Assembly (NCBI GenBank): GCA_030950645.1 | Contig: JAUZRF010000014.1 | Location: 6,670 to 38,669, forward strand | Length of the DNA stretch: 32,000 bases | Direction: 5' to 3' | DNA from: Mariprofundales bacterium | GTDB lineage: Bacteria > Pseudomonadota > Zetaproteobacteria > Mariprofundales > J009 | The notes under the pieces: model-generated | Database searches by the model: none | The model's input: only the letters and a program-made list of their open reading frames with translations | What the model was told of the DNA's origin: nothing | In this document: piece after piece, positions 1 to 28,698 of the stretch | How positions within the stretch are numbered: the first letter of the stretch is position 1 | Layout: the number at the start of each line of letters is the position of its first letter | Position numbers and translations under genes: made by a program

Positions 1-14
1 TTTATTTGAATAGG

Positions 15-163
15 GTAACTACTCAGCTCACTCTCGGTTTTCCTGATAGCGGCGTTGAAAAATGCGCATTTACAGTAGTAAACTCCGCTTTTTCGCCTTG
101 CTATCAGGAAAACCGGAAGCAATCTGAGTAGTTACAGCCATTTTTGGGTAGGGTGCTGAATAG
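15..163 (+). mobile_element. MITE-like palindromic element, copy 1 (lineage I): 121-bp core 15-135 plus right extension with an atypical right end
   Basis: GTAACTACTCAGC left terminus at 15-27. Arms CGGTTTTCCTGATAGC / GCTATCAGGAAAACCG are inverted. The core ends with CTGAGTAGTTAC at 124-135. The extension ends GGGTAGGGTGCTGAATAGG instead of ...GCTGAGTAGTTAC. A 14-bp direct repeat TGAATAGGTAACTA lies at 7-20 and 157-170. Confidence 0.85.
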
Positions 164-196
164 GTAACTATTTAGATCGCTTCCGGTTTTCTCGAT
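164..196 (-). mobile_element. Partial inverted copy of the same element (right-arm fragment), abutting copy 1
   Basis: GTAACTATTTAGATCGCTTCCGGTTTTCTCGAT resembles the reverse complement of ...ATCAGAAAACCGGAAGCGATCTGAGCAGTTAC, the element's right arm. Confidence 0.6.
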
Positions 197-238
197 GGTG
201 GTGTTTTGTAAGAGGCTTAAGCGCAAGGAGTTTTTCGG

Positions 239-679
239 ATGATACAACAGATTACCGATGCGATGAAACAGGCAATGAAAGCGGGCGACAAGCCGCGATT
301 GTCGGCGATCCGTATGTTTCGCGCTGCGCTCAAAGATAGGGAGATTGCTATTGGTCACGCCCTGACGGACGAGGATGTGGTGGCGGTGGGAACGCGCTTG
401 GTGAAGCAGCGGAAAGATGCCGCTGTTCAGTATCAGAAAGCTGAGCGTGAGGATTTGGCTGCGGGGGAGTTGTTTGAGGTTGGCGTGATTTCGCAGTGGT
501 TGCCGCAGGCGATGGCGGATACTGAGGTCGCGCAAGCGGTGGTGGCGGCTTGTGGTGCGCTATCTGCTACCTCAATGCGCGATATGGGCAAGGTGATGGG
601 GGTGCTGCAAAAGCAGTTGGCAGGCCGCGCGGATATGACGCGGGTCTCGGCGCTGGTGAAGGAACATCTCGCCGGATAA
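239..679 (+). CDS. yqeY: GatB/YqeY domain-containing protein
   Basis: 146-aa ORF with a YqeY-like translation (MKQAMKAGDK..L..IR....K..EI......L.D.DV..V). It sits immediately upstream of dnaG-rpoD, as in many proteobacteria. Confidence 0.8.
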   Translation: MIQQITDAMKQAMKAGDKPRLSAIRMFRAALKDREIAIGHALTDEDVVAVGTRLVKQRKDAAVQYQKAEREDLAAGELFEVGVISQWLPQAMADTEVAQAVVAACGALSATSMRDMGKVMGVLQKQLAGRADMTRVSALVKEHLAG

Positions 680-685
680 TTCTCT

Positions 686-2455
686 GTGGCATTTTTTGAG
701 CAACCCTTCATTGAGTCGGTACTCAATCGTACCGATCTGGTGGAGATGGTCTCCCGTCAGGTGCATCTCAAGCGGGTAGGGGCCAATATGGTGGGGCTTT
801 GTCCGTTTCATCATGAGAAAACACCATCCTTCTCGGTATCGCCGGATAAGCAGATGTTTTACTGCTTTGGCTGTGGCAAAGGAGGCAATGCCTTTCGCTT
901 TGCGATGGAGAACGACGGTTACTCGTTTCCTGAAGCCGTGGAGGTGTTGGCTGGTCGCGCTGGGATGGAGCTGCCCGAACGGGCGCAGGAGAAGCCGGGT
1001 GAGCGCGATCGCCGTCAGCGGCGACTAGCGATGCTGCAGCAGGCGGTGGCGTTGTTTCAACAGGCGTTGCGTGACCATGCCCCAGCGCGGGCGTATCTGG
1101 AGTATCGTGCGCTATCGCCATCAACGATTGCGCGTTATGCCCTGGGCTATGCCCCTGATGGGTTTGGATTTTTTCGTGAACAGCTTGCTGGCAGTGGCGA
1201 CACCCAGCGGTTGCTGGTGGATGTTGGTCTGATCAGTGATGCCTCGCATGGCGGCGGTGATCGCTTTCGTGATCGGGTGATTTTCCCGATTCGGGATCGG
1301 CGTGGTCAGGTGGTCGGCTTTGGCGGTCGGGTGTTGGGCGAAGGAGGGCCGAAGTATCTGAACTCTTCTGAGACCTCGCTGTTTCATAAATCCTCGCTGC
1401 TCTACGGTTATTCAGAACACCGCGAGTCGATCCGTAAGGAACGCCGACTGATTGTGGTTGAGGGCTATATGGATGTGCTGGCGCTGGCCAACCATGGATT
1501 GACACAAGGGGTGGCGCCACTGGGTACGGCGATCGGCGAACAGCAGCTTCGTGATATTCTGCGGTTGCACTCTGCACCGCTGTTCTGTTTTGATGGTGAC
1601 GATGCTGGGCGCAAGGCCGCGTGGCGTGCACTGGAGCGCATGTTGCCATTGATTAACGCTGAACATGCTCCCTCGTTTCTTTTTCTTCCTCAAGGTGAAG
1701 ATCCTGATTCGCTATTGCAACATGAGGGTGCAGAGGGGTTGCTCAAGCGTATTGGCAGCGAATCGTTGAGCGCGTTGCAGAGCTGGATTGCTGGGTTGCG
1801 TCAAGAAGCAGGCTCTGGTGCGGAGGCGCGTGCGCGGATGGCTAAACACGCCCATGAGATGCTCGCTACCATGGCAGATCGCTATCTGGCGCAGGCGTGG
1901 CAACAGGAGGCAGAACAGGCGGCGGGAATCTCTATTTCACCGCATCGGGGGCGAAATGGCGTGCCGAATCGTGGCGCATCTGGGCGGAAACACCGTTCTC
2001 CGAAATACCGAGTCGCTGAGCAGTTTATCAAAGGGTTATTGCAGAATCCGGATCGTATTTTGCACTTGGAGGGCTCGGATGGCGCGCTTTTTCTTGACAA
2101 TGATACCCTGCAATCGTTATACACGCGCGCTTTTTCGATTCGAGGCCATTATCAAAATGCTCCCGCCGGTATTATTCGCGAGCTGGGCGCGGCCTTCCCC
2201 GAATCGGTAGCGCTTTCCCGCTGGGCGATGGTGCCGGAGCAAGATCCGGACGCTGGCGATGCGACTGTCGAAGCACGATCGAGCACGGTCACGGAAGTGA
2301 TCAATGATGTTACCTATCAAGCGATTTTGGCAACCTTGCGCATGGAGCAAATTCAACGGCACCTGCGTAGTGGCTCACTGTCGCTGGATGAGAGCATCGT
2401 TTTGCAACAGAAGTTGCGGCAGTTAAGCCAGCAGCGAAAAACAGAACAGAAATAA
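686..2455 (+). CDS. dnaG: DNA primase
   Basis: 589 aa with a GTG start. It has the CHC2 zinc finger CPFHHEKTPSFSV...FYCFGCGKGGN and Toprim motifs VVEGYMDV and CFDGDDAGRKAA. Confidence 0.95.
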   Translation: MAFFEQPFIESVLNRTDLVEMVSRQVHLKRVGANMVGLCPFHHEKTPSFSVSPDKQMFYCFGCGKGGNAFRFAMENDGYSFPEAVEVLAGRAGMELPERAQEKPGERDRRQRRLAMLQQAVALFQQALRDHAPARAYLEYRALSPSTIARYALGYAPDGFGFFREQLAGSGDTQRLLVDVGLISDASHGGGDRFRDRVIFPIRDRRGQVVGFGGRVLGEGGPKYLNSSETSLFHKSSLLYGYSEHRESIRKERRLIVVEGYMDVLALANHGLTQGVAPLGTAIGEQQLRDILRLHSAPLFCFDGDDAGRKAAWRALERMLPLINAEHAPSFLFLPQGEDPDSLLQHEGAEGLLKRIGSESLSALQSWIAGLRQEAGSGAEARARMAKHAHEMLATMADRYLAQAWQQEAEQAAGISISPHRGRNGVPNRGASGRKHRSPKYRVAEQFIKGLLQNPDRILHLEGSDGALFLDNDTLQSLYTRAFSIRGHYQNAPAGIIRELGAAFPESVALSRWAMVPEQDPDAGDATVEARSSTVTEVINDVTYQAILATLRMEQIQRHLRSGSLSLDESIVLQQKLRQLSQQRKTEQK

Positions 2456-2511
2456 TCGGCCGCATGTTGGGTCGAGTAACGAATTCGTAACAGAAGGAAC
2501 TCTTTTATATT

Positions 2512-4578
2512 ATGAGTAATACCATTATGGAACAGCTGCGGGTTAAGCAACTGGGCAGTTTGATCGCCAAGGGTAAGGAGACGGGCTTCATTACCTATGA
2601 CGATCTCAACACGCATCTGCCGGAAGGGCTGGTGTCGCCAGGTCGGGTTGAGGAGGTGATTAACCTCTTTACTGAGATGGGTATTGATGTGGTTGATCCT
2701 GACCGTGCGCCTAGCGGTGCCGGTGCGATGCGTAAGGATCGGCTGCGCAAGGAGGATTCGGCGTTGCGGGCGGATACCACCACCCTGGGCACGGTCATTC
2801 GTATTGATGACCCGGTGCGGATGTACCTGCGTGAAATGGGTACGGTGGAGTTGCTCACCCGCGAGGGTGAGATTGAGATTGCGCGCCGCATTGAGGAGGG
2901 CAAGCTCCAGGTGCATGAGGCGATTTGTCTTTGCCCGGCGACCTTTCGTGAAATTATCGCTTTGGGTGAGCGGGTGATTGCGATTCGCAAAGCGGCAGAT
3001 GAGTTGGGCGAAGAGCCGAACTTTCGTGATCTGCTTGAGGTGAATGAGAAGGTGGTGAATGCTGCCGCGATTGATGAGTACGAGAATCGGATGAGCAAGG
3101 CCGATGAGGGGGATGATGATCCGGGCGAAAAAGAGACGCTGGATCAGGCGCAGCTTGATGCTGCGATCAAGGCGCGTACTGCGACTCCCGATGGAACACC
3201 GATGTTGGAGAAGGTGATTACCATGGAGGAGCAGCTCGATGCTGCGCTGGAGCACTTTACTGAGGCGCGGACACTTCATGAGGTGTTTATTGGCTTGGAT
3301 GCGCGTGCTAAGCGGCGGCCACGAGACAAGAAACTGGCTGCGGAACGGCAGCGGACTCTTGACGCTATGTTGGATAACATGTTGAAAATCCCGTTTTCCC
3401 CTAAGCAGTTTAACCGTTTGATTTTGCGCTTTAAGAATGCCGTTTCTCGGGTGTTGAAATTTGAGCGCGAGATTCGCGATCTTGCGCTGACTGCGGGCGT
3501 GCCGCGTAAGTTGTTTATTGAGTCCTTCCTCCCGCAGGAATCCGATGAGCGTTGGGTTGACGGTCTGGTAGCGAATCATGCGGATGCCAGTTGGGTGGCA
3601 CCGTTGCAGGAGGTTGATTACCGCATTAAAGAGCATCAGCGCCGCTTGCGCCGGGTGGAGCAAGAGAGTGAACTTAAACTCACGGAGCTTAAAGAGGTGG
3701 CACGCCGTTTGACCATGGGTGAGGCGAAAATGCGTCAAGCTAAGCGTGAGATGATCGAGGCCAATCTGCGCTTGGTGATCTCAATCGCCAAGAAATATAC
3801 CAACCGTGGTCTGGGCTTTCTCGATCTGATTCAGGAGGGGAATATTGGTCTGATGAAGGCGGTGGAGAAATTTGAGTGGCGACGCGGCTATAAATTCTCT
3901 ACCTACGCTACATGGTGGATTCGGCAGGCGATTACTCGCTCGATTGCAGACCAAGCCCGTACCATTCGGATTCCGGTTCATATGATTGAGACCATCAATA
4001 AAATCAATCGTGTATCACGCCGTATCGCGCAAGAGACCGGTACTGAGCCTTCATTGGCCGAGTTGGCCATTCATCTGGAGATGACAGCAGAGAAGATTGA
4101 ACAGATTCTCGAGGTGGCCAAGGATCCAGTATCGCTGGAGACCCCTGTGGGTGATGAGGAAGATTCTCAGCTAGGCGATTTTGTCGAGGATGTGAAAGCG
4201 ATCAACCCGCTTGATGGAGCTGTGTCTGGAGCCTTGAAATGTGCCACCTTGGGCGTGCTTGATGGGCTGACCTCACGAGAGGAGAAGGTGCTGAGGATGC
4301 GTTTTGGCATCGGTATGAACACGGACCATACCTTGGAAGAGGTGGGTAAACAGTTTGGCGTCACCCGTGAGCGGATTCGTCAGATTGAGGCGAAGGCGCT
4401 GCGTAAGCTGAGGCACCCCTCGCGTTCGCAAGAGCTCAAAACCTTTTCTGATCTGATTGAGCCGACCGCAGGTGTAACGCCAGCAGAGGATGGCGATGCC
4501 TTAGGGAATGTGGTCGGGAATGCAGCCGGGAATGCGGTGGCTACGCGTGCAACTGGGGTCCAGCCTAAACCTGCCTAA
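2512..4578 (+). CDS. rpoD: RNA polymerase sigma-70 factor RpoD, with a ~45-aa C-terminal tail beyond region 4.2
   Basis: 688 aa. Region 2 reads [54 protein letters not shown]. Region 4.2 reads [32 protein letters not shown]. Confidence 0.97.
4504..4539 (+). repeat. In-frame 12-bp x3 tandem repeat inside the rpoD 3' tail
   Basis: GGGAATGTGGTC GGGAATGCAGCC GGGAATGCGGTG encodes [12 protein letters not shown]. Confidence 0.9.
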
Positions 4579-4603
4579 TGGCTAAGCCCTCGATTTGTCG
4601 TTC

Positions 4604-4755
4604 GTAACTACTCAGCCCACTCCCGGTTTTCCTGCTAGCGGCGTTGAAAAATGCTCATTTACAGTAGTAAACTCCGCTTTTTCGCCTTGCTATCAGAAAA
4701 GCCGGAAGCGATCTGAGCAGTTACGGGATGTTTTCAATGGGTGCTGAGTAGTTAC
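4604..4755 (+). mobile_element. MITE-like element, copy 2 (lineage II, type-B right extension), 152 bp
   Basis: Termini are GTAACTACTCAGC ... GCTGAGTAGTTAC. A perfect 8-bp direct repeat TGTCGTTC lies at 4596-4603 and 4756-4763. The site is between the convergent rpoD and mrp genes. Confidence 0.95.
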
Positions 4756-4802
4756 TGTCGTTCCATTGATGCCTCGCCAGAAGCCATCAATGCGCCTGCG
4801 CG

Positions 4803-5660
4803 TTACCCTGCGGCTACCGGTATGTTGACGCTGGCTTGCCGTGGGAGTTGTTCAAGTTGTTGCATCATGGCTTCGGCAATGGCGCGGTAGTTGGCGGCTT
4901 GCGGGCTGTCGGGATCGGTCACGGTGATGGGGGTTCCTAAGTCCGAGAGCAGACGGATGCGTGGATCTAGCGGTACGCCACCGAGCAGTGGAAGGTTCTG
5001 TTTTTTCGCCAGCTCGCGGGCGCCGTCGTGGGAAAAGAGGTCGCTGGCTCCGCCACAATGCGGGCAGACAAACTCGCGCATATTTTCAATCACCCCTAAG
5101 CAGGGGACGCTTACGGTGCGGAACATGGTGATCGCTTTGCGGCAGTCAATCAACGCCACCTCTTGCGGCGTGGTCACGATGACCGCACCGGATATGGGCG
5201 CCTGCTGTGCCAGCGTCAGATGGATATCGCCAGTGCCGGGGGGGAGATCAAGCAACAGGATGTCGATCTCATCCTCGGGATGGCGTTGCCAGCGCACATC
5301 GCGCAATAGCTGCATCACAGTGCCAGAGGCCATTGGCCCGCGCCAGATCATCGCTTGGTCTTCATTGACGAGGTAGCCGATGGAGATGGTGCGTACGCCA
5401 TAGTTATCGATGGGAAACAGGGTTTTACCTTCCACCTCAGGCTCGCGGTCAGCAAGCCCCATCATGAGCGGGATTGAGGGACCATAGATATCGGCATCGA
5501 CCAACGCCACCCGTAGGCCGCTCGCGGCTAACGCAACGGCAAGGTTGACCGTGGTGGTGGATTTGCCAACACCGCCTTTGCCTGAGGCGATGGCGATGAT
5601 ATTTCGCACGCCGGGGATGGGCGTTTTGCCAGCGGGAATGTGAGATGAAGGGGGGGGCAT
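4803..5660 (-). CDS. apbC: Mrp/ApbC/NBP35-family Fe-S cluster carrier ATPase (short form, no N-terminal domain)
   Basis: 285 aa with P-loop ASGKGGVGKSTTTVNLA and an FVCPHCG motif. SD AAGGAG lies 6 nt upstream of the ATG. Confidence 0.9.
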   Translation of the reverse strand: MPPPSSHIPAGKTPIPGVRNIIAIASGKGGVGKSTTTVNLAVALAASGLRVALVDADIYGPSIPLMMGLADREPEVEGKTLFPIDNYGVRTISIGYLVNEDQAMIWRGPMASGTVMQLLRDVRWQRHPEDEIDILLLDLPPGTGDIHLTLAQQAPISGAVIVTTPQEVALIDCRKAITMFRTVSVPCLGVIENMREFVCPHCGGASDLFSHDGARELAKKQNLPLLGGVPLDPRIRLLSDLGTPITVTDPDSPQAANYRAIAEAMMQQLEQLPRQASVNIPVAAG

Positions 5661-5685
5661 AGGGACTCCTTAGGATTCTTGTGCT

Positions 5686-5838
5686 GTAACTACTCATCTC
5701 ACTCTCGGTTTTCCTGATAACGGCGTTGAAAAATGCGCATTTACAGTAGTAAACTCCGCTTTTTCGCCTTGCTATCAGGAAAACCGGAAGCAATCTGAGC
5801 AGTTACCGCCATTTTTGGGTAGGGTGCTGAGTAGTTAT
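5686..5838 (+). mobile_element. MITE-like element, copy 3 (lineage I), 153 bp, no recognisable TSD
   Basis: GTAACTACTCATC ... GCTGAGTAGTTAT. It occupies 153 of the 201 bp between the divergent mrp (ATG 5660) and rsfS (TTG 5862). Flanks CTTGTGCT and TATGTTTG do not match. Confidence 0.9.
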
Positions 5839-5861
5839 TATGTTTGTAAGGAGAGCGTAGA

Positions 5862-6227
5862 TTGAATACTGACCCGCAACAGCGGCTGCAAGCGTTGACT
5901 GATCAACTGGTGACAGCCCTTGAAGACAAGAAAGCTGCCGAAATTCTCACGATCGATGTGCAGGGTCGCTGCTCTTTTTCTGACCGTTTTGTCCTCGCCA
6001 ATGCGCGCAATGGTCGCCATCTGAAGGCGCTGTCTCAAGCGGTGGCTGGAGTGGGGCATCAGTTTGATCTGCCTGCCACGGTGGAGGGCATGACTGCACT
6101 GGAGTGGCTGGTGGTGGATCTGCAAGATGTGATCGTTCACCTGTTTTTACCAGATATTCGCGAGCAATTTCAACTGGAACGGTTGTGGCAACAACCCACC
6201 ATGTCGGGGAATGATCCCAGCGAGTGA
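5862..6227 (+). CDS. rsfS: Ribosome silencing factor RsfS (iojap-like)
   Basis: 121 aa with TTG start and SD AAGGAG. RsfS-like sequences: ILTIDV.....F.D.FV.A........KAL and WLVVDLQDVIVHLFLPDIREQFQLERLW. GTGA overlap with rlmH. Confidence 0.85.
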   Translation: MNTDPQQRLQALTDQLVTALEDKKAAEILTIDVQGRCSFSDRFVLANARNGRHLKALSQAVAGVGHQFDLPATVEGMTALEWLVVDLQDVIVHLFLPDIREQFQLERLWQQPTMSGNDPSE

Positions 6228-6676
6228 AGCAACGCTTGCTGGTGGTTGGGCGCGGCGATTCGGAGTTGGCTGACTATGAAAAGCGTTTTATGCACCGTAT
6301 CTGCTCCTTTACCCCATTTGAGGTGATTGAGTTGCAGGCAGGGAAAGAGAAACGCATCGAACAGCGTCGCCAGCAGGAGGGGGTTCGTATTCGCAAACGG
6401 TGTCAGGAGCGTACTATGGTGCTGTTTGATGAGCGGGGGCGGCGAATGACCAGCCAGCATTGGGCGAGCTTTCTAAGGGATCAACCCGGCAGTGCAGAGA
6501 TTGATTATGTGATCGGCGGAGCCGGCGGCGTGGAGGATAATCTGCGAAATTCGGCGGCCCAGTGTTGGCAGCTCTCAGCCCTAACGCTTCCCCACCAGTT
6601 GGTACGCACTTTGGTGCTGGAGCAGCTCTATCGCGCGCAGACGATTCTTGCTGGGCACCCCTACCATCGCGAATAA
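6224..6676 (+). CDS. rlmH: 23S rRNA (pseudouridine1915-N3)-methyltransferase RlmH
   Basis: 150 aa with the SPOUT C-terminus YVIGGAGGV...LSALTLPHQLVRTLVLEQLYRAQTILAGHPYHRE. Conserved rsfS-rlmH pairing. Confidence 0.9.
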   Translation: MKQRLLVVGRGDSELADYEKRFMHRICSFTPFEVIELQAGKEKRIEQRRQQEGVRIRKRCQERTMVLFDERGRRMTSQHWASFLRDQPGSAEIDYVIGGAGGVEDNLRNSAAQCWQLSALTLPHQLVRTLVLEQLYRAQTILAGHPYHRE

Positions 6677-6775
6677 TTTGTTGTGATTGCTTAGGGTAAT
6701 TTGAGCAGGAGTGTTTTTCTGAAGTAACACCCTACTGAAAAGTCAGGAGTGAGCAGAGTAAATATTAATAGGAGG

Positions 6776-6817
6776 GTGACTACTCAGCGCCCTACCAGAA
6801 GCAATCTGAGCAGTTAC
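6776..6817. mobile_element. 42-bp mini-derivative of the MITE family (termini only)
   Basis: GTGACTACTCAGCGCCCTACCAGAAGCAATCTGAGCAGTTAC. A perfect 8-bp direct repeat ATAGGAGG lies at 6768-6775 and 6818-6825. Confidence 0.85.
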
Positions 6818-6834
6818 ATAGGAGGTATGGTAAT

Positions 6835-7386
6835 ATGGGATTAGTAGCATCAATTCATGTGGATTTGGGCTGGAAGTTGCCCGCAGTGACGCTGACAGAT
6901 CTGAATGCGAAGCCGGTGGATCTGAAGCCGCAGCTGGGTGAGAACGGGTTGTTGGTTGCCTTTACCTGCAACCACTGTCCGTATGCGATAGCGGTGTGGC
7001 CTAGGCTTATTCGTCACGCAGCAACCTTGCGCAGCATGGGTATCAACACGGTGGCGATTAACCCCAATATTCACCCAGATTTCCCGCAAGACTCGGTGGC
7101 GGCGATGGCGGATAAGGTGCGCGAGTGGAACATCGATTTTCCCTATCTGGCTGACACTTCCCAAGATGTAGCACGCCAATTTGATGCGCAGTGTACTCCG
7201 GATCTCTACCTATTCGATGGCAGTGGTGCGCTCTATTACCATGGTCGTATTGACGACTACTGGAAGGATGAGGCCAAAGTGACGCAACAGGAGCTGTTGC
7301 CGGCTGCGAAGGCGATGGTGAATGGTTCTCCGGCTCCGCAGCCACAGCACCCTACGATTGGTTGTTCCATCAAGTGGCAAGGGTGA
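6835..7386 (+). CDS. Thioredoxin-fold protein (AhpC/TSA / TlpA-like thiol-disulfide oxidoreductase family)
   Basis: 183 aa with the CxxC motif FTCNHCPY. The redoxin-like layout includes a conserved C-terminal GCSIKW. SD GGAGG lies 9 nt upstream. Confidence 0.65.
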   Translation: MGLVASIHVDLGWKLPAVTLTDLNAKPVDLKPQLGENGLLVAFTCNHCPYAIAVWPRLIRHAATLRSMGINTVAINPNIHPDFPQDSVAAMADKVREWNIDFPYLADTSQDVARQFDAQCTPDLYLFDGSGALYYHGRIDDYWKDEAKVTQQELLPAAKAMVNGSPAPQPQHPTIGCSIKWQG

Positions 7387-7416
7387 TCGATCGCTGAACC
7401 GGCTGTAGGCCAAGCC

Positions 7417-9801: not shown

Positions 9802-9822
9802 GATAGAAGCAGTTGTTTATTC

Positions 9823-9975
9823 ATAACTACTTAGCTCACTTCCGATTTTCCCGATAGCGGCGTTGAAAAATGCGCATTGACAGTAGTAAACTCCGCTTTT
9901 TCGCCTTGCTATCAGGAAAACCGGAAGCAATCTGAGCAGTTATAGCCATTTTTGGGTAGGGTGATGCGTAGTTAT
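9823..9975 (+). mobile_element. MITE-like element, copy 4 (lineage I), 153 bp, slightly decayed termini
   Basis: ATAACTACTTAGC ... GATGCGTAGTTAT. A perfect 8-bp direct repeat GTTTATTC lies at 9815-9822 and 9976-9983. The right copy contains the glmS stop codon. Confidence 0.93.
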
Positions 9976-9977
9976 GT

Positions 9978-11825
9978 TTATTCGACGGTAACGGATTTAG
10001 CCAGATTGCGTGGCTGGTCGACATCTGTGCCCTTGGCGCGGGCGACATAGTAGGCGAGTAGTTGCAAAGGCACCGCAGCCAAGATTGGTGCGGTGAAGAG
10101 GTCACCCTGTGGTAGTTGGATGCGGCCATCGACCGTGATGGATTGCACCGCATCCGCGTCCTGATCGGTTAGCAAAATGATGCGTGCTCCGCGTGCCTGC
10201 ACCTCTCTCAGGTTGGAGATGACCTTATCGAGGTAGTACTGTCTTAGCCCTAGCACCACCACCGGCATGGTTTCATCGATCAGTGCAATGGGGCCATGTT
10301 TCATCTCGCCAGCGGCATAACCCTCGGCATGGAGGTAGGAGATCTCCTTGAGCTTGAGTGCGCCCTCCAATGCCAATGGGTAACAGGCGCCACGGCCAAG
10401 GAATAGCGCGCCATGGGCATGGAGGAATAGCGGTGTCAGGCTGGCGATGGCCTGGCGTTGGCGTAAGATGGTGCGAATATCTGCGCTGCTTTGATGAAGA
10501 AATCGCAAATGCTCTGCTAGCGCAGCATCATTCACCGTGCCCATACGGTAGGCTAGCGTAAGCGAGAATAGCGCTAAGACGGTGAGTTGGGCGGTGAAGG
10601 CTTTGGTAGAGGCGACACCAATTTCTGGCCCTGCATGGAGCAGAATGGTGCCGTCGGACTCGCGCACCATGGATGAGTGGTCAACATTGCACAGGGTGAG
10701 GGTGCGATTATGTGGCGTTAGCGACTTGAATAGGCGCAACGCCTCTAAGGTGTCGGCGGTTTCACCCGATTGCGATAGTGTGACCAGCAGTGTATCGGGG
10801 CCAATAATGGGGTTGCGATAGCGGTACTCCGAGGCAACATCCACCTCAACTGGAATCTGCAAAAAACGCTCGAGCCAGTAACGCGAAGCAAGGGCTGCAT
10901 GGTAGGAGGTGCCGCAGGCAATCATCACAATGCGCTGGGGCAGGGGGTCGTGGTGTATCCAGCTGCATTTAGGAAAACAGATTGACTGGCTGCCACTGGT
11001 GTAGCGCTCCAGAATGCGTGCAATCACCTCGGGCTGTTGGTGAATTTCCTTGTCCATATAGTGGTCGAAACCATCTTTGCCGGTTGTGCTTTGGGTGGTG
11101 GGCATCGGTTGCCAGTTGGGATCTACGGCATTGCCCTTGGCATCAAATAGCGCCATGGCATTGGCGCGAATCCAGCCCCATTCTCCCTCGTTGAGGTAGA
11201 GCACCTGTTCCGCATGGGCGGCGACTGCCAAGGCATCGGAGGCCACCAACACCCCGTGGGAACTCTTGGCCAACAATAATGGGCTCCCTTTGCGGGCAAA
11301 CCATAGCTTTTCTGGGCTTTCTTGGTGCAGGGCTGCAATGGCAAAGGCGCCTTCGAGTTGCTGGAGCATCGCATGCCATGCCTCGTGTGGGCTGCATTGC
11401 TCATCGCCCTCCAATAACCATGGAATCACCTCGCTATCGGTCTCGGATTGCAGATGGCTTTTGCCGGATTTTAACGCATTGCGCAGCTCGATATGATTTT
11501 CGATGATGCCATTATGAACCACCGCCCAATGTGGGCTGAGGTGAGGATGGGCATTGATCGCGGTGGCGCTACCATGGGTGGCCCAGCGGGTGTGACCGAT
11601 ACCAGTATGGCCGGAGAGTGGTTTTTTGGCTAAGGCCTGTTGCAAATGGGAGAGTTTCCCCGGTTGCTTTTCACAATGAAATTGTGCTTCGTCCGCTTCA
11701 TCCGCTTCATTCAATAGGCAGATCCCAGCGCTGTCATAGCCTCGATACTCCATGCAGCGTAGAGCATCAAGCAGGATGGAGCTAACATCGCCTGATGGGA
11801 AGGATGCAGCAATGATTCCGCACAT
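9978..11825 (-). CDS. glmS: Glutamine--fructose-6-phosphate aminotransferase
   Basis: 615 aa with N-terminal MCGI (Ntn amidotransferase), SIS domains and the C-terminus DQPRNLAKSVTVE. Confidence 0.97.
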   Translation of the reverse strand: MCGIIAASFPSGDVSSILLDALRCMEYRGYDSAGICLLNEADEADEAQFHCEKQPGKLSHLQQALAKKPLSGHTGIGHTRWATHGSATAINAHPHLSPHWAVVHNGIIENHIELRNALKSGKSHLQSETDSEVIPWLLEGDEQCSPHEAWHAMLQQLEGAFAIAALHQESPEKLWFARKGSPLLLAKSSHGVLVASDALAVAAHAEQVLYLNEGEWGWIRANAMALFDAKGNAVDPNWQPMPTTQSTTGKDGFDHYMDKEIHQQPEVIARILERYTSGSQSICFPKCSWIHHDPLPQRIVMIACGTSYHAALASRYWLERFLQIPVEVDVASEYRYRNPIIGPDTLLVTLSQSGETADTLEALRLFKSLTPHNRTLTLCNVDHSSMVRESDGTILLHAGPEIGVASTKAFTAQLTVLALFSLTLAYRMGTVNDAALAEHLRFLHQSSADIRTILRQRQAIASLTPLFLHAHGALFLGRGACYPLALEGALKLKEISYLHAEGYAAGEMKHGPIALIDETMPVVVLGLRQYYLDKVISNLREVQARGARIILLTDQDADAVQSITVDGRIQLPQGDLFTAPILAAVPLQLLAYYVARAKGTDVDQPRNLAKSVTVE

Positions 11826-13348: not shown

Positions 13349-13382
13349 AGAAAAACAAAGGGGCTGCAACATGTGCAACCCC
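13349..13382 (-). terminator. Rho-independent terminator downstream of the atp operon
   Basis: The minus-strand RNA reads GGGGUUGCA-CAUGU-UGCAGCCCC followed by UUUGUUUUUCU. This is a 9-bp stem with one G-U pair. Confidence 0.7.
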
Positions 13383-13464
13383 GTAATTACTCAGCACCCA
13401 TTGAAAACATCCCATAACTGCTCAGATCGCTTCCGGTTTTTCTGATAGCAAGCTGAGTAGTTAC
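13383..13464 (-). mobile_element. 82-bp internal-deletion derivative of the MITE (reverse orientation, copy-2-like type-B extension)
   Basis: GTAATTACTCAGC...GCTGAGTAGTTAC. It lacks most of the left arm and the whole centre. A perfect 8-bp direct repeat GCAACCCC lies at 13375-13382 and 13465-13472. Confidence 0.9.
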
Positions 13465-13506
13465 GCAACCCCTTTGTTTAATTGTAGCTGTTCAGTGTAT
13501 CCCGTG

Positions 13507-13552
13507 ATCTAAGCAGTTACAGCCATTTTCTGGTAGGGTGCTGAGTAGTTAC
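13507..13552 (+). mobile_element. Solo right-end fragment of the MITE (5'-truncated)
   Basis: ATCTAAGCAGTTACAGCCATTTTCTGGTAGGGTGCTGAGTAGTTAC matches the right 46 bp of the full-length copies. It lies 14 bp from the atpC stop. Confidence 0.8.
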
Positions 13553-20049: not shown

Positions 20050-20061
20050 TTTTATCTCCCT

Positions 20062-22230: not shown

Positions 22231-22265
22231 GGTTGGTTCTCATACTCCTATTGGTTTGATAAAAA

Positions 22266-22336
22266 TATAAGCACCGTTTGAAATTGCGACTGAGCCTGGC
22301 AAGTTGTTTCAAAACTTGTTGCAGTGCCCCTCAGTC
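22266..22336 (-). ncRNA. SAH riboswitch (SAH_riboswitch class) in the ahcY 5' leader
   Basis: The minus-strand sequence is GAGGGGCACUGCAAC[CAAGUU-uugaaac-AACUUG]CCAGGCUCAGUCGCAAUUUCAAACGGUGCUUA. It matches the remembered consensus GAGGAGCGCUGCGAC..hairpin..CAGGCUCGG..AACGGCGCUC. It sits ~35 nt upstream of the ahcY ATG. Confidence 0.72.
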
Positions 22337-22350
22337 TTAAGAGGTTTTTA

Positions 22351-22419
22351 CCACCGAGGTACAGGGTATACGGAGAAATATATTGTATATATCACGCAGT
22401 GTACTCTGTACCTCGGTGG
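22351..22419. repeat. Hairpin repeat, family 2 ('empty' form): 21-bp arms, 27-nt loop
   Basis: CCACCGAGGTACAGGGTATAC (22351-22371) pairs with GTGTACTCTGTACCTCGGTGG (22399-22419). 19 of 21 positions are complementary. T-run and AT-rich flanks as at the other two loci. Confidence 0.85.
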
Positions 22420-22431
22420 AGATATAAAGGC

Positions 22432-23598
22432 TTATGTGAGTGCGGCCTTGAGCGCTTCCACCTTATCGGTACGCTCCCAGGTGAACTCAGGCAGTTCGCG
22501 GCCGAAGTGGCCATAGGCTGCGGTCTTGGCATAGATCGGGCGTAGCAGATCGAGTTGCTGTACGATCCCCTTGGGGCGCATGTCAAACACCTCCCGGACT
22601 GCATCGGATAGCTTGGTCTCATCCACCGTGCCGGTACCAAAGGTGTCGATCATTACCGACAGCGGGTGGGCAACGCCAATGGCGTAGGCCACCTGAACCT
22701 CACAACGCTCAGCTAGGCCAGCGGCCACGATGTTTTTGGCCACATAACGCATCATATAGCAGGCAGAACGATCCACTTTAGAGGGATCCTTGCCTGAAAA
22801 TGCCCCGCCACCGTGGTGGCCGAAGCCGCCATAGGTGTCAACGATGATTTTACGACCAGTGACACCGCAATCACCAACCGGACCGCCGATCACAAAGCGT
22901 CCAGTCGGGTTGATGTGGTAGGCAGTATCGGCATGAAGCAGGCCTGTGGGATCTAGAATGGGTTTGATTACCTCATCCATGATGGCCGCCGAGAGATCCG
23001 TATGGCTAACATCGGGGTTATGCTGAGTTGAGAGCACCACCGCATCAATCGCTACGGGCTTGCCCGCCTCGTAACGCACGGAGACCTGTGATTTGGCATC
23101 GGGGCGCAAAAACTTCAGTACGCCCGCTTTGCGCACCGCTGCCTGCTTGGCCATCAGAAGGTGGGACAGGTGGATGGCGGTTGGCATCAACACATCCGTT
23201 TCGTTGCTGGCATAGCCAAACATCAGGCCCTGGTCACCAGCGCCTTGATCCAGATCTAGACCCTCACCTTCGTTGACGCCCTGGGCGATATCCACCGACT
23301 GCTTATCTAAGTTAACCAAGACTGCGCAAGACTGCCAGTCAAAACCCATCTCTGACGAGTTGTAGCCAATCTCTTTGATCGCTTCACGCACAACTTGTTG
23401 GTAATCCACCACCGCAGAGGTGGTGATCTCGCCAGCAATCAGCGCCATGCCGGTAGTGACCATGGTTTCACAGGCTACACGGCTCTGTTTGTCCTGACTT
23501 AACAGTGCATCAAGGATGCCGTCAGAGATGCGGTCTGCGACCTTGTCGGGGTGACCTTCGGAAACGGATTCACTGGTAAAAACGAAATTGCGCGACAT
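22432..23598 (-). CDS. metK: S-adenosylmethionine synthetase
   Basis: 388 aa with motifs [19 protein letters not shown] and GGGAFSGKD. Confidence 0.98.
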
Positions 23599-23716
23599 GA
23601 ATGGAGGTGCTCCTAAAGTTGGGAATTAGAACAAATGCGTGGCGCATGATAGCGCCAGCGAGTAAATTTCCAACTAGACCTTAGCCGAAAATCCTAATGG
23701 GTATTTTTCCTCTTTT

Positions 23717-23837
23717 GTAACTACTCAGCTCACTCCCAGTTTTCCTGCTAGCGGCGTTGAAAAATGCTCATTTACAGTAGTAAACTCCGCTTTTTCGCCT
23801 TGCTATCAGAAAAACCGGAAGCAATCTGAGCAGTTAC
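23717..23837 (+). mobile_element. MITE-like element, copy 6 (lineage II): 121-bp core only, no right extension
   Basis: GTAACTACTCAGC ... CTGAGCAGTTAC. A perfect 8-bp direct repeat CCTCTTTT lies at 23709-23716 and 23838-23845. Confidence 0.95.
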
Positions 23838-23869
23838 CCTCTTTTGAAGTTTCCTGAATTCAGGCTTTT

Positions 23870-23883
23870 TAACTACTCAGCTC
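23870..23883 (+). mobile_element. Solo left-terminus-like 14-mer of the MITE
   Basis: TAACTACTCAGCTC is identical to element positions 2-15. It lies 8 bp from the sufT stop and nothing else of the element follows. Confidence 0.4.
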
Positions 23884-23890
23884 CCCCCTG

Positions 23891-24448
23891 TTAAAACATC
23901 CCCAGTTGCAGCTTGGCGGTATCGCTCATCATGGCGCGATCCCATGGCGGGTCGAAAACCAGTTCGACATGAACATCGTGGACATGGCGCAAAGCGAGCA
24001 CCTTGCTGCGTACATCCTCAATGATGAACGGCCCCATGCCGCAGCCGGGGGCAGTGAGGGTCATGATGATCTCAACGATACTGTTGCCGTCGTCATCATC
24101 GACGATATGAATATCATAGACCAGTCCGAGGTCAACAATATTGACTGGTATTTCAGGATCATAGCAGGTTTTTAGCTCCTCACGCACCCGATCCTCTTCA
24201 ATGATTCCCGGGGTGTCATCAATCGGTTGAGTGAGTGGTTCCTCGGCAGTGTTATCACTGACTCCAAGTGCTGCTGCATCCTTACCATCCACGCGTGCCA
24301 AGTTGCCACCTACCTCCACGGTGTAGGATCCGCCCAACTGTTGGGTGATGGCGATTTTGGCCCCTTTGGGGATCACCACTGGGGTACCAAGTGGGATCAT
24401 GATGGCATCGATATTGTCGGTGGTGACGGTCCAGTTTCGGGATGGCAT
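23891..24448 (-). CDS. sufT: SUF-system Fe-S assembly protein SufT (long form, C-terminal DUF59/MIP18 domain)
   Basis: 185 aa with DUF59 motifs DPEIPVNIVDLGLVY and TLTAPGCGMG. It is the last gene of the suf cluster. Confidence 0.8.
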   Translation of the reverse strand: MPSRNWTVTTDNIDAIMIPLGTPVVIPKGAKIAITQQLGGSYTVEVGGNLARVDGKDAAALGVSDNTAEEPLTQPIDDTPGIIEEDRVREELKTCYDPEIPVNIVDLGLVYDIHIVDDDDGNSIVEIIMTLTAPGCGMGPFIIEDVRSKVLALRHVHDVHVELVFDPPWDRAMMSDTAKLQLGMF

Positions 24449-24458
24449 AATTCTCTCT

Positions 24459-24911
24459 CTACTCCGTTTTGGCGCGGGTTGCGCCCTCTATCGCCGCCTT
24501 GGCGGTGTGCCAGCACAGGGTGGCGCATTTGATGCGGCTGGGGAATTCACGAACTCCGGCCAGTGCCGCCAATTTGCCGAGCGTGGCCTGATCTGGCTCT
24601 TCGTCAAGGTCGCAGGTGGTCATGTGGTGGAACTGTGCAAACAGCTGTTTGAATGCATCCACACTTTTCCCGATCAGTGATTGGGTCATCAATGAGGCGG
24701 AAGCGGTGGAGATGGCGCACCCCTCGCCCTCAAAACGCACCTGCTGGATGATGCCGTCATTATCAATGTTCAGGTAAAGGTGCAGTTGATCGCCACAGAG
24801 CGGGTTGTAGCCCTCGGCATCGTGGCTGCATGGCTCCAGCTTGCCAAAGTTGCGCGGGCTTTTGTTGTGATCAACAATCACCTGCTGATACAATGACTTC
24901 AGATCAAACAT
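24459..24911 (-). CDS. sufU: SUF-system NifU/IscU-like scaffold or sulfur-transfer protein SufU
   Basis: 150 aa with motifs NPLCGD, GEGCAIS and REFPSRIKCATL. It sits downstream of sufS. Confidence 0.85.
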   Translation of the reverse strand: MFDLKSLYQQVIVDHNKSPRNFGKLEPCSHDAEGYNPLCGDQLHLYLNIDNDGIIQQVRFEGEGCAISTASASLMTQSLIGKSVDAFKQLFAQFHHMTTCDLDEEPDQATLGKLAALAGVREFPSRIKCATLCWHTAKAAIEGATRAKTE

Positions 24912-25004
24912 GGGGAATTTTCATCGCGGTTTTCTTCCTCGACATCCTCGATATCCACGCCTCTGCGGTAAATCTTTTCTTGATGCAGATAGCCCATGCA
25001 ACCA

Positions 25005-26219
25005 TCATGCAAACATCTCCTGCGCCTTGGTCAATGCGGCAAACAGTGCATCGACCTCATCAATGGTATTGTAAACCGCAAACGAGGCGCGGGCGGTGGC
25101 GGGCACCTTGAAGTGTTGCATTACCGGCATGGCGCAGTGGTGTCCGGCACGGATCGCTACCCCTTCGCTGTCGAGAATGGTGCCGAGATCGTGCGGGTGT
25201 ACTCCGGCCAGTACAAAGGAGAGCACGCATGCCTTGTTTGGCGCGTTACCGATGATACGCAGCCCCGTAAATTGCTCGGCTTTTGCGGTGGCATAGGTAA
25301 GAAGCTCGCGCTCTTGCGCCGCAATGGCGGGAAATCCCAGCTGTTGCAACCAGTTGATGGCGGCACCGAAGCCAATCACGCCGGCAATATTGGGTGTTCC
25401 CGCCTCAAATTTGTGCGGTAGATCGTTGTACTGCGTCTGCGCAAAGCTGACGGTGCGGATCATGTCGCCACCACCCTGGTAGGGCGGCATGGCATCGAGC
25501 AGGGTCGCTTTGGCAATCAACACGCCGGTGCCGGTCGGGCCGTACATTTTGTGGGCGCTGGTGACATAAAAGTCGACATCCAACAGCTGGAGATCGACCG
25601 CGAGATGCCCTGCGGCCTGTGCACCATCGATCAAAACCAATGCCCCAACAGCGTGCGCCTTGGTGATGATTTCAGCAATCGGATTGATGGTGCCGAGAGC
25701 ATTGGACATCTGCACGATGCCAACCAATTTGGTGCGCTCGGAGAGTAGGTCATCCAGTTGCTCCATGCACAGCGCGCCACAGTCATCCATCGGTAGCACC
25801 TTAATGACGGCACCAGTGCGTGTAGCGATCATCTGCCACGGCACGATGTTGGAGTGGTGCTCCATCTCGCTAAGCAGGATTTCATCACCTGCGTGAAGAT
25901 TGGTTCCACCCCAGCTTGCTGCGACCAGATTGATCGCCTCGGTGGCGCCGCGGGTAAAGATCACCTCGCGGATGGAGGCGGCATTGAACAGTTTGGCAAT
26001 GTTGCTGCGTGCCGACTCATAGGCGGCGGTAGCACGCTCGGAGAGCAGGTGTACGCCACGGTGGATATTGGCATTGTCCGCCTGGTAGTAGTGACGCACG
26101 GCATCGATCACGCACTGCGGTTTTTGGGTGGTAGCGGCGTTGTCGAGATAGACCAGTGGATGGCCATGCGCCTGCTGATGCAGAATCGGAAACTGCTCGC
26201 GGATGGCATCGATATTCAT
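25005..26219 (-). CDS. sufS: Cysteine desulfurase SufS (class II)
   Basis: 404 aa with PLP lysine context TSAHKMYGPTG and active-site loop RAGHHCAMP. Confidence 0.95.
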   Translation of the reverse strand: MNIDAIREQFPILHQQAHGHPLVYLDNAATTQKPQCVIDAVRHYYQADNANIHRGVHLLSERATAAYESARSNIAKLFNAASIREVIFTRGATEAINLVAASWGGTNLHAGDEILLSEMEHHSNIVPWQMIATRTGAVIKVLPMDDCGALCMEQLDDLLSERTKLVGIVQMSNALGTINPIAEIITKAHAVGALVLIDGAQAAGHLAVDLQLLDVDFYVTSAHKMYGPTGTGVLIAKATLLDAMPPYQGGGDMIRTVSFAQTQYNDLPHKFEAGTPNIAGVIGFGAAINWLQQLGFPAIAAQERELLTYATAKAEQFTGLRIIGNAPNKACVLSFVLAGVHPHDLGTILDSEGVAIRAGHHCAMPVMQHFKVPATARASFAVYNTIDEVDALFAALTKAQEMFA

Positions 26220-26249
26220 GCGATCTTCCGGTGCTGGAAGATTTTTTTA

Positions 26250-26317
26250 CCACCAAGGCACAAAGAGACAAAGTTTAATGAAACATCGAACACACTTTGT
26301 GCCTTCGTGCCGTTGTG
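26250..26317. repeat. Hairpin repeat, family 2 ('empty' form, imperfect) in the sufD-sufS spacer
   Basis: CCACCAAGGCACAAAGAGACAAAGT (26250-26274) faces ACTTTGTGCCTTCGTGCCGTTGTG (26294-26317). About 19 of 24 positions are complementary. It has the same TTTTTTTACCACC left flank as the 22351 locus. Confidence 0.75.
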
Positions 26318-26345
26318 TTTGAAAATATTACATTTATTCATCCTA

Positions 26346-27518
26346 TTACGCTCCATGTGGCAGTTTGGCCATGATGGCTTGTTCGATCACTTTGCGTAGC
26401 TCGGGGATCGCTACCGTATCGAGCAACGCTTCGGCGAAGGCGATGGTGAGTAGCTGGCGCGCTTCGGCCTTGGCTATCCCGCGTGATTGTAGGTAAAACA
26501 GCTGTTCGGCATCGAGTTGACCGACGGTGGCACCGTGGGCGCATTTTACATCGTCGTTGTAGATCTCCAGCTCCGGTTTGGTATCCACCTGTGCCCGTTT
26601 GGAGAGCAGCAGGTTGGCGTTGGTTTGTGCTGAATCGGTACCATTCGCCCCCTTGGCCACCCGCACGGCACCGTTGAAAACTACGCGGGCGCGGTCATCG
26701 GCTACCGTGCGGTAGTGGACGCGACTGCGGCAGTGTGGGGCAGCGTGGTTGATATGCAGGTGGTGGTCGGCGTGCTGCCGCCCCGCTAGCACCATCAGTC
26801 CATTGAGGGTGCACTCCGCCCCCTGCTCCAGCAGCGTGGTGACGAGGTCAAGTCGGGAGAGCGCACTGCCCAGTTCGGCTGCAAACAGACGGTAGCGGCT
26901 ATCGCGGTGCTGTCCGATCTCGATCCGGCCGAGATGAAAATGGCTGGCGCTGTTTTGTTGGATGCGGTAGTGGTCAAGGGCGGCATTGGCTTGCAGACGA
27001 ATCTGGCATAAGCTGGTACCCACTCCGGCACCTGTGGCAACGCCGTGAAAATGGTCGATCAATGTTGCGTTGGTACCTGCCCCGATATGGATACCATGGA
27101 GACGCGCGCTGCTTCCTGTTGCTTCAGGGTGTGTGATCAGAATTGGCTGTTCCAACTCAACGCCGTCCGCGATGCAGAGGCAGATTCCGCCATCCGCCAA
27201 GGCGCGAGCCAACTTGGCGCTGTAGGGCAGGGGGGGCGCTGGCGGCAGATCAAACAGCCCGTGATCGCTTTCGCGCCAGGGTCGTAGTGTGACGCCATCT
27301 GGCAGTGCACGGTCGCAACTCGCCGTAGCGGCATTGATGCGGATGCTATCGAGCGTCAGTTCGGAGGGTGTAGCCACAGGCGTGCCCGCACGCTGTTGCC
27401 ACCACGCCGCACCCAGCGCCGCTACCAGCGGTGATAAACTCGTATATTTCCAATCCTCATCCTGTAGCGAAGGCAAGGCGATTCCTGTCAATTGCTGCGG
27501 CGCATTATTGGTCAGCAT
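26346..27518 (-). CDS. sufD: Fe-S cluster assembly protein SufD
   Basis: 390 aa with the N-terminal EDWKYTSL motif and a SufB/D beta-helix C-terminal region (GATVGQLDAEQLFYLQSRGI). Confidence 0.9.
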   Translation of the reverse strand: MLTNNAPQQLTGIALPSLQDEDWKYTSLSPLVAALGAAWWQQRAGTPVATPSELTLDSIRINAATASCDRALPDGVTLRPWRESDHGLFDLPPAPPLPYSAKLARALADGGICLCIADGVELEQPILITHPEATGSSARLHGIHIGAGTNATLIDHFHGVATGAGVGTSLCQIRLQANAALDHYRIQQNSASHFHLGRIEIGQHRDSRYRLFAAELGSALSRLDLVTTLLEQGAECTLNGLMVLAGRQHADHHLHINHAAPHCRSRVHYRTVADDRARVVFNGAVRVAKGANGTDSAQTNANLLLSKRAQVDTKPELEIYNDDVKCAHGATVGQLDAEQLFYLQSRGIAKAEARQLLTIAFAEALLDTVAIPELRKVIEQAIMAKLPHGA

Positions 27519-27552
27519 TAATGGTTACTCTGTGTCTCTGTGGTGAAAATAT

Positions 27553-28308
27553 TCATGCGGCAGTATCCTTTTCCAGTAGCCAGTCATATCCCTCTTTCTC
27601 AAGCTTATGCGCTAGCTTAGCATCGCCGGAGGTGAGAATTTCCCCATTGGCCAAGACATGAACAAAATCGGGTGTAATGTAATCGAGCAGGCGTTGGTAG
27701 TGGGTGATCATGACGATGGCGCGTTCGGGATTGCGGAGCTTATTGATGCCACCAGCGACGATGCGCAGGGCATCAATGTCCAGCCCAGAGTCGGTCTCAT
27801 CGAGCAGCGCCAATTTGGGCTCAAGTACCGCCATTTGGAAGATCTCGTTGCGCTTTTTCTCGCCGCCGGAAAAACCGACATTAACCGAGCGCGACAGGAA
27901 TGCGGGGTCAAGTTCAACCAGCCGAGCCTTCTCCTGCACCATCTGCATAAAATCCATCGCATCAAGCTCTTCCAGCCCCTGTTGCCTGCGCCGGGCATTG
28001 ACCCCTGCCTTAAGCAGGTAGGTGTTGTTGACCCCAGGGATCTCCACCGGGTACTGAAAGGCGAGGAAAATCCCCGCCCACGCCCGCTCCTCCGGTTTCA
28101 TCTCCAGCAGATCTTGATCGAAGTAGCGGATGCTGCCTTGGGTAACGGTGTAACCATTGCGGCCTGCAATCACATTCGACAGCGTCGATTTCCCCGACCC
28201 ATTCGGCCCCATAATTGCATGCACCTCGCCAGCGTTGATGGTGAGGTTGATCCCCTTAAGAATAGCCTTGCCATCCACTTCGACATGTAAATTTTCAATT
28301 TTTATCAT
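27553..28308 (-). CDS. sufC: Fe-S cluster assembly ATPase SufC
   Basis: 251 aa with Walker A GPNGSGKST, ABC signature FSGGEKKR and Walker B LLDETDSGLD. Confidence 0.97.
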   Translation of the reverse strand: MIKIENLHVEVDGKAILKGINLTINAGEVHAIMGPNGSGKSTLSNVIAGRNGYTVTQGSIRYFDQDLLEMKPEERAWAGIFLAFQYPVEIPGVNNTYLLKAGVNARRRQQGLEELDAMDFMQMVQEKARLVELDPAFLSRSVNVGFSGGEKKRNEIFQMAVLEPKLALLDETDSGLDIDALRIVAGGINKLRNPERAIVMITHYQRLLDYITPDFVHVLANGEILTSGDAKLAHKLEKEGYDWLLEKDTAA

Positions 28309-28366
28309 ATGTTAAAACCTTTTTTATTAACCACAAAGGCACGAAGACACAAAGTTTTTTGTATCA

Positions 28367-28698
28367 TTATAGTGCAATGCGTTTAATCCCTTGTTTGATA
28401 AGTGGTAACTACTCAGCTCACTCCCGGTTTTTCTGATAGCGGCGTTGAAAAATGCTCATTTACAGTAGTAAACTCCGCTTTTTCGCCTTGCTATCAGAAA
28501 AACCGGAAGCAATCTGAGCAGTTACAGCCATTTTCTGGTCGGGTGCTGAGTCGTTACGATAAGTGGAACATTGAAGTTCACCAATAGTCCCAGCTTGGTG
28601 TTGGTCAGCTTCATATAGGTGAGAATTTGGGCTTGATGCACGCGAAAGATTGCATCAACTACATGGCGGGAGAGCGTATTGAGAGTGTTGCTAACCAT
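28367..28698 (-). pseudogene. GxxExxY-family (PD-(D/E)XK-like) gene remnant: internal deletion of the catalytic core and disruption by a MITE insertion
   Basis: Removing 28405-28557 and one TSD copy gives [21 protein letters not shown]|[35 protein letters not shown]. The N-terminal (LS..I..AI.VH) and C-terminal (AQ.L.Y.K....K.GLL.NF...L.K.GIKRI) signatures of the family are present. About 70 central residues are missing. Confidence 0.75.
28405..28557 (+). mobile_element. MITE-like element, copy 7 (lineage II), 153 bp, inserted into the GxxExxY remnant
   Basis: GTAACTACTCAGC ... GCTGAGTCGTTAC. A perfect 8-bp direct repeat GATAAGTG lies at 28397-28404 and 28558-28565. Excision restores the reading frame. 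Confidence 0.96.

Follow-up and report, generated by a model that had tools for sequence, protein, structure and literature searches.

Short palindromic repeats in a Mariprofundales genome carry the ends of ISBst12-group insertion sequences and are probably non-autonomous transposable elements

Palindromic repeats in a housekeeping region

The DNA analyzed here, referred to as the window, is a 32,000-nucleotide stretch of contig JAUZRF010000014.1 from a Mariprofundales bacterium. It is a housekeeping region that includes yqeY, dnaG, rpoD, mrp, rsfS, rlmH, a peroxiredoxin gene, hpn genes, glmS, and glmU, as well as the atp operon, ahcY with an S-adenosylhomocysteine (SAH) riboswitch, metK, and the suf operon. 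The spaces between these genes contain a family of short palindromic repeats, at a density of approximately one per 4 kb, which are very probably MITEs (miniature inverted-repeat transposable elements) related by their ends to the ISBst12 group of insertion sequences (ISs) from the IS66 family. A repeat finder identified six units of approximately 173 nucleotides at positions 5–177, 4594–4766, 5676–5848, 9813–9985, 23707–23879, and 28395–28567. The 121-bp cores of these six full copies (c1 to c6) are positioned where they had been placed in an original prediction, made by reading the window, and can be aligned with pairwise identities of 89.3–97.5%. The two linked variants, by which the same prediction divided the copies into lineages, are confirmed: GCGC occurs together with CAGG in c1, c3, and c4, and GCTC together with CAGA in c2, c5, and c6. 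The 12-nucleotide terminus GTAACTACTCAG, with up to two mismatches allowed, is present 24 times in the 32 kb, compared to an expectation of 0.91, and none of 100 shuffled sequences equaled this count. The 12-mer ends are inverted on every element.

Perfect 8-bp direct repeats flank six of the elements, and all six repeats differ from each other. When all inward-facing pairs of termini in the window were scored for flanking 8-mers, five perfect target-site duplications (TSDs) were obtained (c2, d1, d2, c5, and c6); the duplication of c4 was read directly, since the outer terminus of this copy is degenerate. By chance, positions paired in this way would have a perfect 8-mer match at a rate of 6e-5. 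Copy c2 (4604–4755, forward strand) lies between the convergent genes rpoD and mrp, is composed of the core, a type-b spacer, and an outer right terminus, and is flanked by TGTCGTTC (4596–4603 and 4756–4763). The termini of c4 (9823–9975, forward strand) are ATAAC...GTTAT, and its duplication is GTTTATTC (9815–9822 and 9976–9983). Copy c5 (23717–23837, forward strand) consists of the core only and stops at the inner right terminus, with the duplication CCTCTTTT (23709–23716 and 23838–23845), and c6 (28405–28557, forward strand), which separates sufB from sufC within the suf operon, has the duplication GATAAGTG (28397–28404 and 28558–28565). Two shorter derivatives are duplicated at their flanks in the same manner. 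The 42-bp element d1 (6776–6817, not assigned to a strand) is formed by two inverted termini without a core and is flanked by ATAGGAGG (6768–6775 and 6818–6825). The internally deleted element d2 (13383–13464, reverse strand) is flanked by GCAACCCC (13375–13382 and 13465–13472). The perfect, site-specific duplications that had been predicted are thus present on six elements and missing from c1 and from c3 (5686–5838, forward strand), which occupies the spacer that separates mrp from the divergently oriented rsfS.

Copy c1 (15–163, forward strand), made up of the core at 15–135 and a truncated right extension, belongs to a head-to-tail array that is truncated by the edge of the window and has no true duplication. 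The junction of the array, TGAATAG/GTAAC, is present twice, at 7–19 and 156–168. The partial unit adjoining c1 (164–205, forward strand) contains only a left terminus (GTAACTATTTAG) and a left arm. Two further pieces of the family had not been listed previously. The rearranged element d2b (13484–13552, forward strand) contains GTAGCTGTTCAG, 13 bp, an inner right terminus, a spacer, and an outer right terminus, and lacks a duplication. A solo terminus, TTAACTACTCAG (23869–23880, forward strand), adjoins the 3' end of an FeS-assembly gene. Between c5 and the solo terminus, directly downstream of the FeS-assembly gene, there is a hairpin, CCTGAATTCAGG, followed by CTTTTT (23846–23868).

Architecture of the element

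The full element is organized, from left to right, into a left terminus, a 36-bp arm, a 47-nucleotide center, a second 36-bp arm, an inner right terminus (R1), a spacer of 19–20 nucleotides that occurs in two sequence variants, and an outer right terminus (R2). The unit of 121 bp given in the original prediction is correct for the core; however, the usual length of the element is approximately 152 bp, because a 31–32-bp extension past the core ends in the second right terminus, whereas c5 ends at the inner one. In d1, an R2-type end is positioned opposite an R1-type end. The reversed copy d2 has lost the center, and only fragments of an element are present in d2b and at 23869. The 12-mer and a few further bases are all that the derivatives have in common with each other and with a differently built element at the locus L021, described below. 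The elements in the window are 42–153 bp long, where MITEs are under about 300 bp, and have no coding capacity.

A full element can be folded into one long hairpin with an energy, calculated for single-stranded DNA (ssDNA), of −37 kcal/mol, compared to −15 kcal/mol for shuffled sequences (z = −7.5). The folding is strand-asymmetric in all six full copies of the window, the complement of the written strand being more stable by 8–25 kcal/mol. Those mismatches in the arms that were checked by eye correspond to C·A in one strand and to G·U in its complement.

Elements often adjoin or overlap another copy's terminus, as is the case in the window array (7–19 and 156–168) and at the loci L011 and L021, and some duplications take in the last base of the terminus of a neighboring copy. 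This arrangement suggests a preference for insertion beside existing ends.

The ends are those of the ISBst12 group

ISDge4 from Deinococcus geothermalis belongs to the ISBst12 group of the IS66 family and encodes a single 449-residue transposase; its terminal inverted repeats (TIRs) are GTGACTACTCAGCA and GTAACTGCTCAGCA, and its direct repeat is 8 bp long (PMC12898284). In IS66 itself, the ends are GTAAGCG and the repeats are 8 bp long (PMC11946415). All three variants of the terminus found in the window match the TIRs of ISDge4. An IS66-family IS with a single open reading frame (ORF) in pHTA426 of Geobacillus kaustophilus is bounded by GTATCTATTCAGCCC and GTAACTATTCAGCCC and has a perfect 8-bp TSD, GACGAGTT. 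Its 485-residue transposase matches the Pfam families DDE_Tnp_IS66 (E = 1.9e-64) and zf-IS66. Further IS copies were obtained as tblastn homologues of this transposase, and their boundaries were read directly. The copy from Bacillus thuringiensis has GTAACTACTCAGCTT at either end, that from Deinococcus wulumuqiensis has the ends GTAACTGCTCAGCA and GTAACTACTCAGCA, and the right end of the copy from Pseudanabaena is GTAACTACTCAG. The ends of the Octadecabacter copy are diverged (GTAACTCCCAAGCACCC; GTAACTCCCAAG) and enclosed by the perfect 8-bp TSD TGTTTTTA. The ends of the window elements are identical to, or differ by one mismatch from, those of ISDge4 and of the Geobacillus, B. thuringiensis, Deinococcus, and Pseudanabaena ISs.

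The presence of an exact 12-mer at the boundaries of ISs in four phyla, together with the equal length of the duplications, is not a matter of chance and identifies the repeats as ISBst12-type MITEs. We estimate a probability of about 0.85 that they are non-autonomous MITEs of this type, for which a DDE transposase resembling that of ISBst12 presumably acts in trans. The family is a new one in Mariprofundales and is classifiable to the known ISBst12 group, although it had been called unclassified. The most hesitant suggestion of the original prediction, that a GTAA start is reminiscent of IS66, was right, and the other candidate families that it named can be dropped. Its claim of novelty is refuted for the termini, which match catalogued IS ends, and not for the core, for which no matching described MITE was found; neither was a previously described ISBst12-derived MITE found in the literature.

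Several observations weigh against this assignment. A tblastn search with five IS66-family transposases detected no such gene in the window, as had been predicted, or in 329 kb of related loci. The core and its apex are absent from the sampled ISs of the ISBst12 group and, therefore, the element did not arise from one of them simply by internal deletion. No documented counterpart of the tandem second right end was found for ISs of this group. Two of the six full copies lack a duplication, and there is no intact TSD around the IS copies from B. thuringiensis and D. wulumuqiensis.

Insertion sites and distribution of the family

All copies are intergenic, as predicted, and the additional claim of an insertion into a pseudogene was not borne out. 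The orientation of the elements relative to neighboring genes, based on crude ORF calls, has no pattern. The TSD of c4 spans the last codon and stop codon of glmS (…SVTVE-stop), and the stop is kept by the right-hand copy of the TSD. Upstream of the peroxiredoxin gene, the ribosome-binding sequence AGGAGG is repeated by the TSD of d1. Element d2 sits within the stem of the intrinsic terminator of atpC, and its removal in silico together with one copy of the TSD generates AAACAAAGGGGTTGCACATGTTGCAGCCCCTTTGTTTTT, an intact atpC terminator hairpin.

The Mrp and GlmU proteins of the next relatives are 76–83% identical to those encoded in the window. In three relatives with the gene order metK-ahcY-atp-glmU-glmS, there is no terminus and no apex across approximately 50 kb, and the spacer between atpC and glmU is 0–92 bp long, compared to 327 bp in the window. 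The nearest relative has a protein identity of 79–83%, which is too distant for the definition of a base-exact empty site. The presence of the family is lineage-specific. The absence of the element from relatives and the restoration of the terminator by excision, together with the TSDs and the lack of a transposase gene in the window, uphold the original view of the repeats as mobile and non-autonomous.

The family also occurs on contigs of other Mariprofundaceae metagenome-assembled genomes (MAGs), with the ends GTAACTAYTCAG (loci L010, L011, L014, L017, and L021), where one copy has a perfect 8-bp TSD and one has a TSD matching in seven of eight positions. A different MITE is located at L021 (2026–2180); it has ISBst12-type termini including an R2-R1 end, an unrelated interior (CCCCTGATTTG…CAAATCAGGGG), and a TSD with seven of eight positions matching. 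The combination of the same ends with an unrelated interior indicates that the ends are what is mobilized. At L014 (7557–7641 and 7692–8000), a copy of the family is interrupted after the apex by another IS, with the C-terminus of an integrase-type transposase encoded on the minus strand. This rve-type transposase beside the truncated copy was considered as the parent of the family and rejected, because it belongs to an unrelated IS that interrupts the MITE. Family-specific 25-mers had no match in two metagenome scans, no copy of the window family was found in plasmid or Escherichia coli collections, and the terminus pattern gave only chance matches in coding DNA of viral contigs.

The closest relative (Mrp identity 83%; L031, 1–330) has another large palindrome upstream of mrp, with arms of approximately 60 bp (AACCCTACCGAAGGTCATAAACGTCG…), which is unrelated to the repeats. 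The SAH riboswitch (Rfam RF01057, 49 bits) is located at 22262–22338 on the reverse strand, upstream of ahcY and downstream of metK, and the metK-ahcY arrangement is likewise found in three relatives. It is the sole match in an Rfam scan of the window, which identified nothing at the repeats.

An apical hairpin shared with repeats of distant bacteria

The center of the window core is an apex of approximately 45 nucleotides, formed by AAAATGCTCATTTAC, a loop of 4–6 nucleotides, and AGTAAACTCCGCTTTTTCGCC. A scan of a genome collection with an exact 21-nucleotide segment of the center identified at least 27 loci and revealed a near-identical apex in palindromic repeats of distant bacteria. Among the matches listed, most are from outside the Zetaproteobacteria: Pseudomonas, Halomonas, Agarilytica, Thiodiazotropha, Piscirickettsiaceae, Gallionella, Sideroxydans, Nitrosomonadales, Formivibrio, a deltaproteobacterium, Gemmatimonadales, and Tidjanibacter (a Bacteroidota MAG). 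One apex locus is on a viral contig, and the apex is absent from the E. coli collection. Like the window elements, these repeats are palindromic and approximately 150 bp long, but they have other outer arms, such as CAGGCYGTTGAAAAAC…, other termini, and CTAG/CTAA-like flanks with 4-bp duplications of the CTAG type (L001–L009, L012, L013, L015, L016, L018–L020, L022–L030, and L047). In plasmids of the Pseudomonas syringae group, a version of the apex with GCTCTGTACGTAAAAGT ends is positioned between CTAG repeats; both the ends and the flanks are reminiscent of the IS5 family, for instance of ISPsy2 and MITEPsy1. MITEPsy1 of P. syringae is a 100-bp element derived from the IS5-family ISPsy2, with a 4-bp CTAG/YTAA duplication (PMC3189936). 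It shares flanks of the CTAG/YTAA type and ends of the TGAAAAA type with the apex-sharing repeats. It was rejected as their identity, because neither the core nor the apex is homologous to its sequence. A search of the literature with sequence strings for the apex or for the CTAG-type ends found nothing relevant.

Several Pseudomonas species have an apex element in the same spacer between ndpA and ppk2 (L026, 1437–1583; L004; L007). Some elements of the Pseudomonas type contain modular inserts of approximately 55 and 28 nucleotides on either side of the apex (left in L007, L023, and L047; right in L007, L019, and L047), which contain small hairpins and a repeated GACC…CCGGAGG motif. Two tandem apex units with yet another kind of arm are present in the Tidjanibacter MAG contig (L020, 2800–3082). 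A short peptide encoded by the apex was considered and rejected, because the length of the loop varies by 1–2 nucleotides.

It is possible, if doubtful, that the repeats are structured RNAs or terminators kept for a function in the host and that transposition was only their mode of arrival. Such a role is complementary to the MITE assignment and does not exclude it. Unlike the arms, which differ, the apex is conserved from phylum to phylum, and even its left half, which is outside the search pattern, is at least 90% conserved in 25 sequences; the apparent conservation of the 21-mer itself is inflated by the exact-match search. Compensatory changes are found at 24 of the 40 pairs of the hairpin, although palindromic repeats can exhibit such changes without an RNA function. 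The minus strand, the complement of the written one, folds better in 24 of 31 apex elements. The ndpA-ppk2 copies from two Pseudomonas species are 92.5% identical to each other, with an identical central segment of 61 nucleotides, whereas the flanking coding DNA is 81–87.5% identical. The core contains a sigma-70-like TTGAAA-18-TAAACT, which is a consensus match only. By contrast, Rfam searches that covered the window and 22 loci, with gathering as well as permissive thresholds, detected no family at the repeats or the apex, the apical stem is AT-rich and weak, and the crude ORF calls revealed no consistent orientation relative to neighboring genes.

Since ISBst12 ends surround a core that is found elsewhere with other ends, the window family looks chimeric. 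In an alignment calculated using MAFFT, GT-AACTACTCAG of the window family is paired with GTTGAAAAACTACTGCG of the other apex elements, which is only a hint at a subterminal origin of the new ends. A tentative interpretation, which we consider less probable than its opposite, is that the apex is a conserved functional module, an RNA or ssDNA hairpin, that has been repeatedly fitted with unrelated transposon ends. These might then comprise, for Zetaproteobacteria, the ISBst12 type with 8-bp TSDs and, for Gamma- and Betaproteobacteria, at least two types flanked by CTAG, an assignment that is equally tentative.

Other routes of spread

The repeats could have been moved by a transposase from another family that generates 8-bp TSDs, such as ISL3, IS1595, IS6, IS256, IS1, or ISAs1. 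The length of the duplication on its own fits all these families, as is generally known of ISs, and neither the window nor the 329 kb of related loci provided a transposase that would decide the matter. However, the 12-mer ends of the repeats are identical to the TIRs of ISBst12-group elements, which were read in four phyla precisely where the IS begins or ends. Ends typical of the other families, GG… and CAGGG…, are unlike GTAACTACTCAG. A transposase from one of these families is, therefore, highly improbable.

Even less probable is that the repeats are repetitive extragenic palindromic (REP) sequences, bacterial interspersed mosaic elements (BIMEs), or paired REP hairpins (REPINs), spread by recombination or by an IS200/IS605-like HUH enzyme, the REP-associated tyrosine transposase (RAYT), instead of by DDE transposition. 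The window family resembles REP/REPIN-RAYT systems in its dense spacing, its strictly intergenic positions, and the folding of the whole element into a long hairpin; in addition, the terminus includes GTAG, and one strand folds better than the other. Nevertheless, the spread of REPs and REPINs leaves no site-specific duplications of constant length, whereas six perfect ones were found here, the ends are equal to the TIRs of a DDE-type IS, and there is no RAYT gene within the window. The original prediction had set this possibility aside on the basis of the duplications, and that judgement stands.

Site-specific recombination into a fixed attachment sequence, which might explain why several insertions abut the termini of other copies (the c1 array, L011, and L021), is refuted by the diversity of the flanks, since the flanking 8-mers, as had been predicted, all differ and have no common motif.

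Proposed mechanism of transposition

The following model is proposed for the movement of the ISBst12-type MITEs. A DDE transposase of the ISBst12 type, with its gene elsewhere in the genome, would bind the ends of 12–14 bp, GTAACTRCTCAG(C), and would move any DNA positioned between two inward-facing ends. On integration, the target would be cut with a stagger of 8 bp, and subsequent gap repair would produce the 8-bp duplications, a chemistry and cut geometry that follow those of DDE transposons in general. To our knowledge, the transposition reaction of the ISBst12 group has not been worked out. A full element combines a single left end with two right ends in tandem, either of which may be usable by the transposase. 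The choice between the two right ends would give rise to the 121-bp form, the form of approximately 152 bp, and the mini-derivatives of 42–82 bp.

ISs of the ISBst12 group (ISDge4 and the pHTA426 IS) and the window family share the TIRs and the 8-bp TSDs. Unlike these ISs, the window elements are noncoding, no longer than 153 bp, have a duplicated right end, and contain an interior unrelated to that of the sampled ISs. MITEPsy1 is, like the window family would be, a bacterial MITE moved in trans, but the two differ in their ends and in the 8-bp duplications of the window elements. The Correia elements of Neisseria and the enterobacterial repetitive intergenic consensus (ERIC) elements of Enterobacteria are also intergenic, fully palindromic, 100–160 bp long, and co-transcribed with neighboring genes; however, they have TA duplications and other ends. 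An approximate Correia sequence gave no significant alignment.

Significance

Within the 32 kb of this housekeeping region, the family explains approximately 1.3 kb of intergenic DNA that would otherwise be puzzling, and the repeats can be assigned to a known group of transposases. The insertions are located at sensitive places: the stop codon of glmS, a ribosome-binding site, the atpC terminator, and the suf operon. A MITE with alternative right ends that is present approximately once per 4 kb constitutes a useful set of natural substrates for a poorly studied transposase. If the apex is a conserved functional module, MITEs would be its vehicles, or the module may be what makes the MITEs successful. 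Although this is not established, the shared apex would suggest that MITEs of different transposase families exchange ends around a conserved hairpin.

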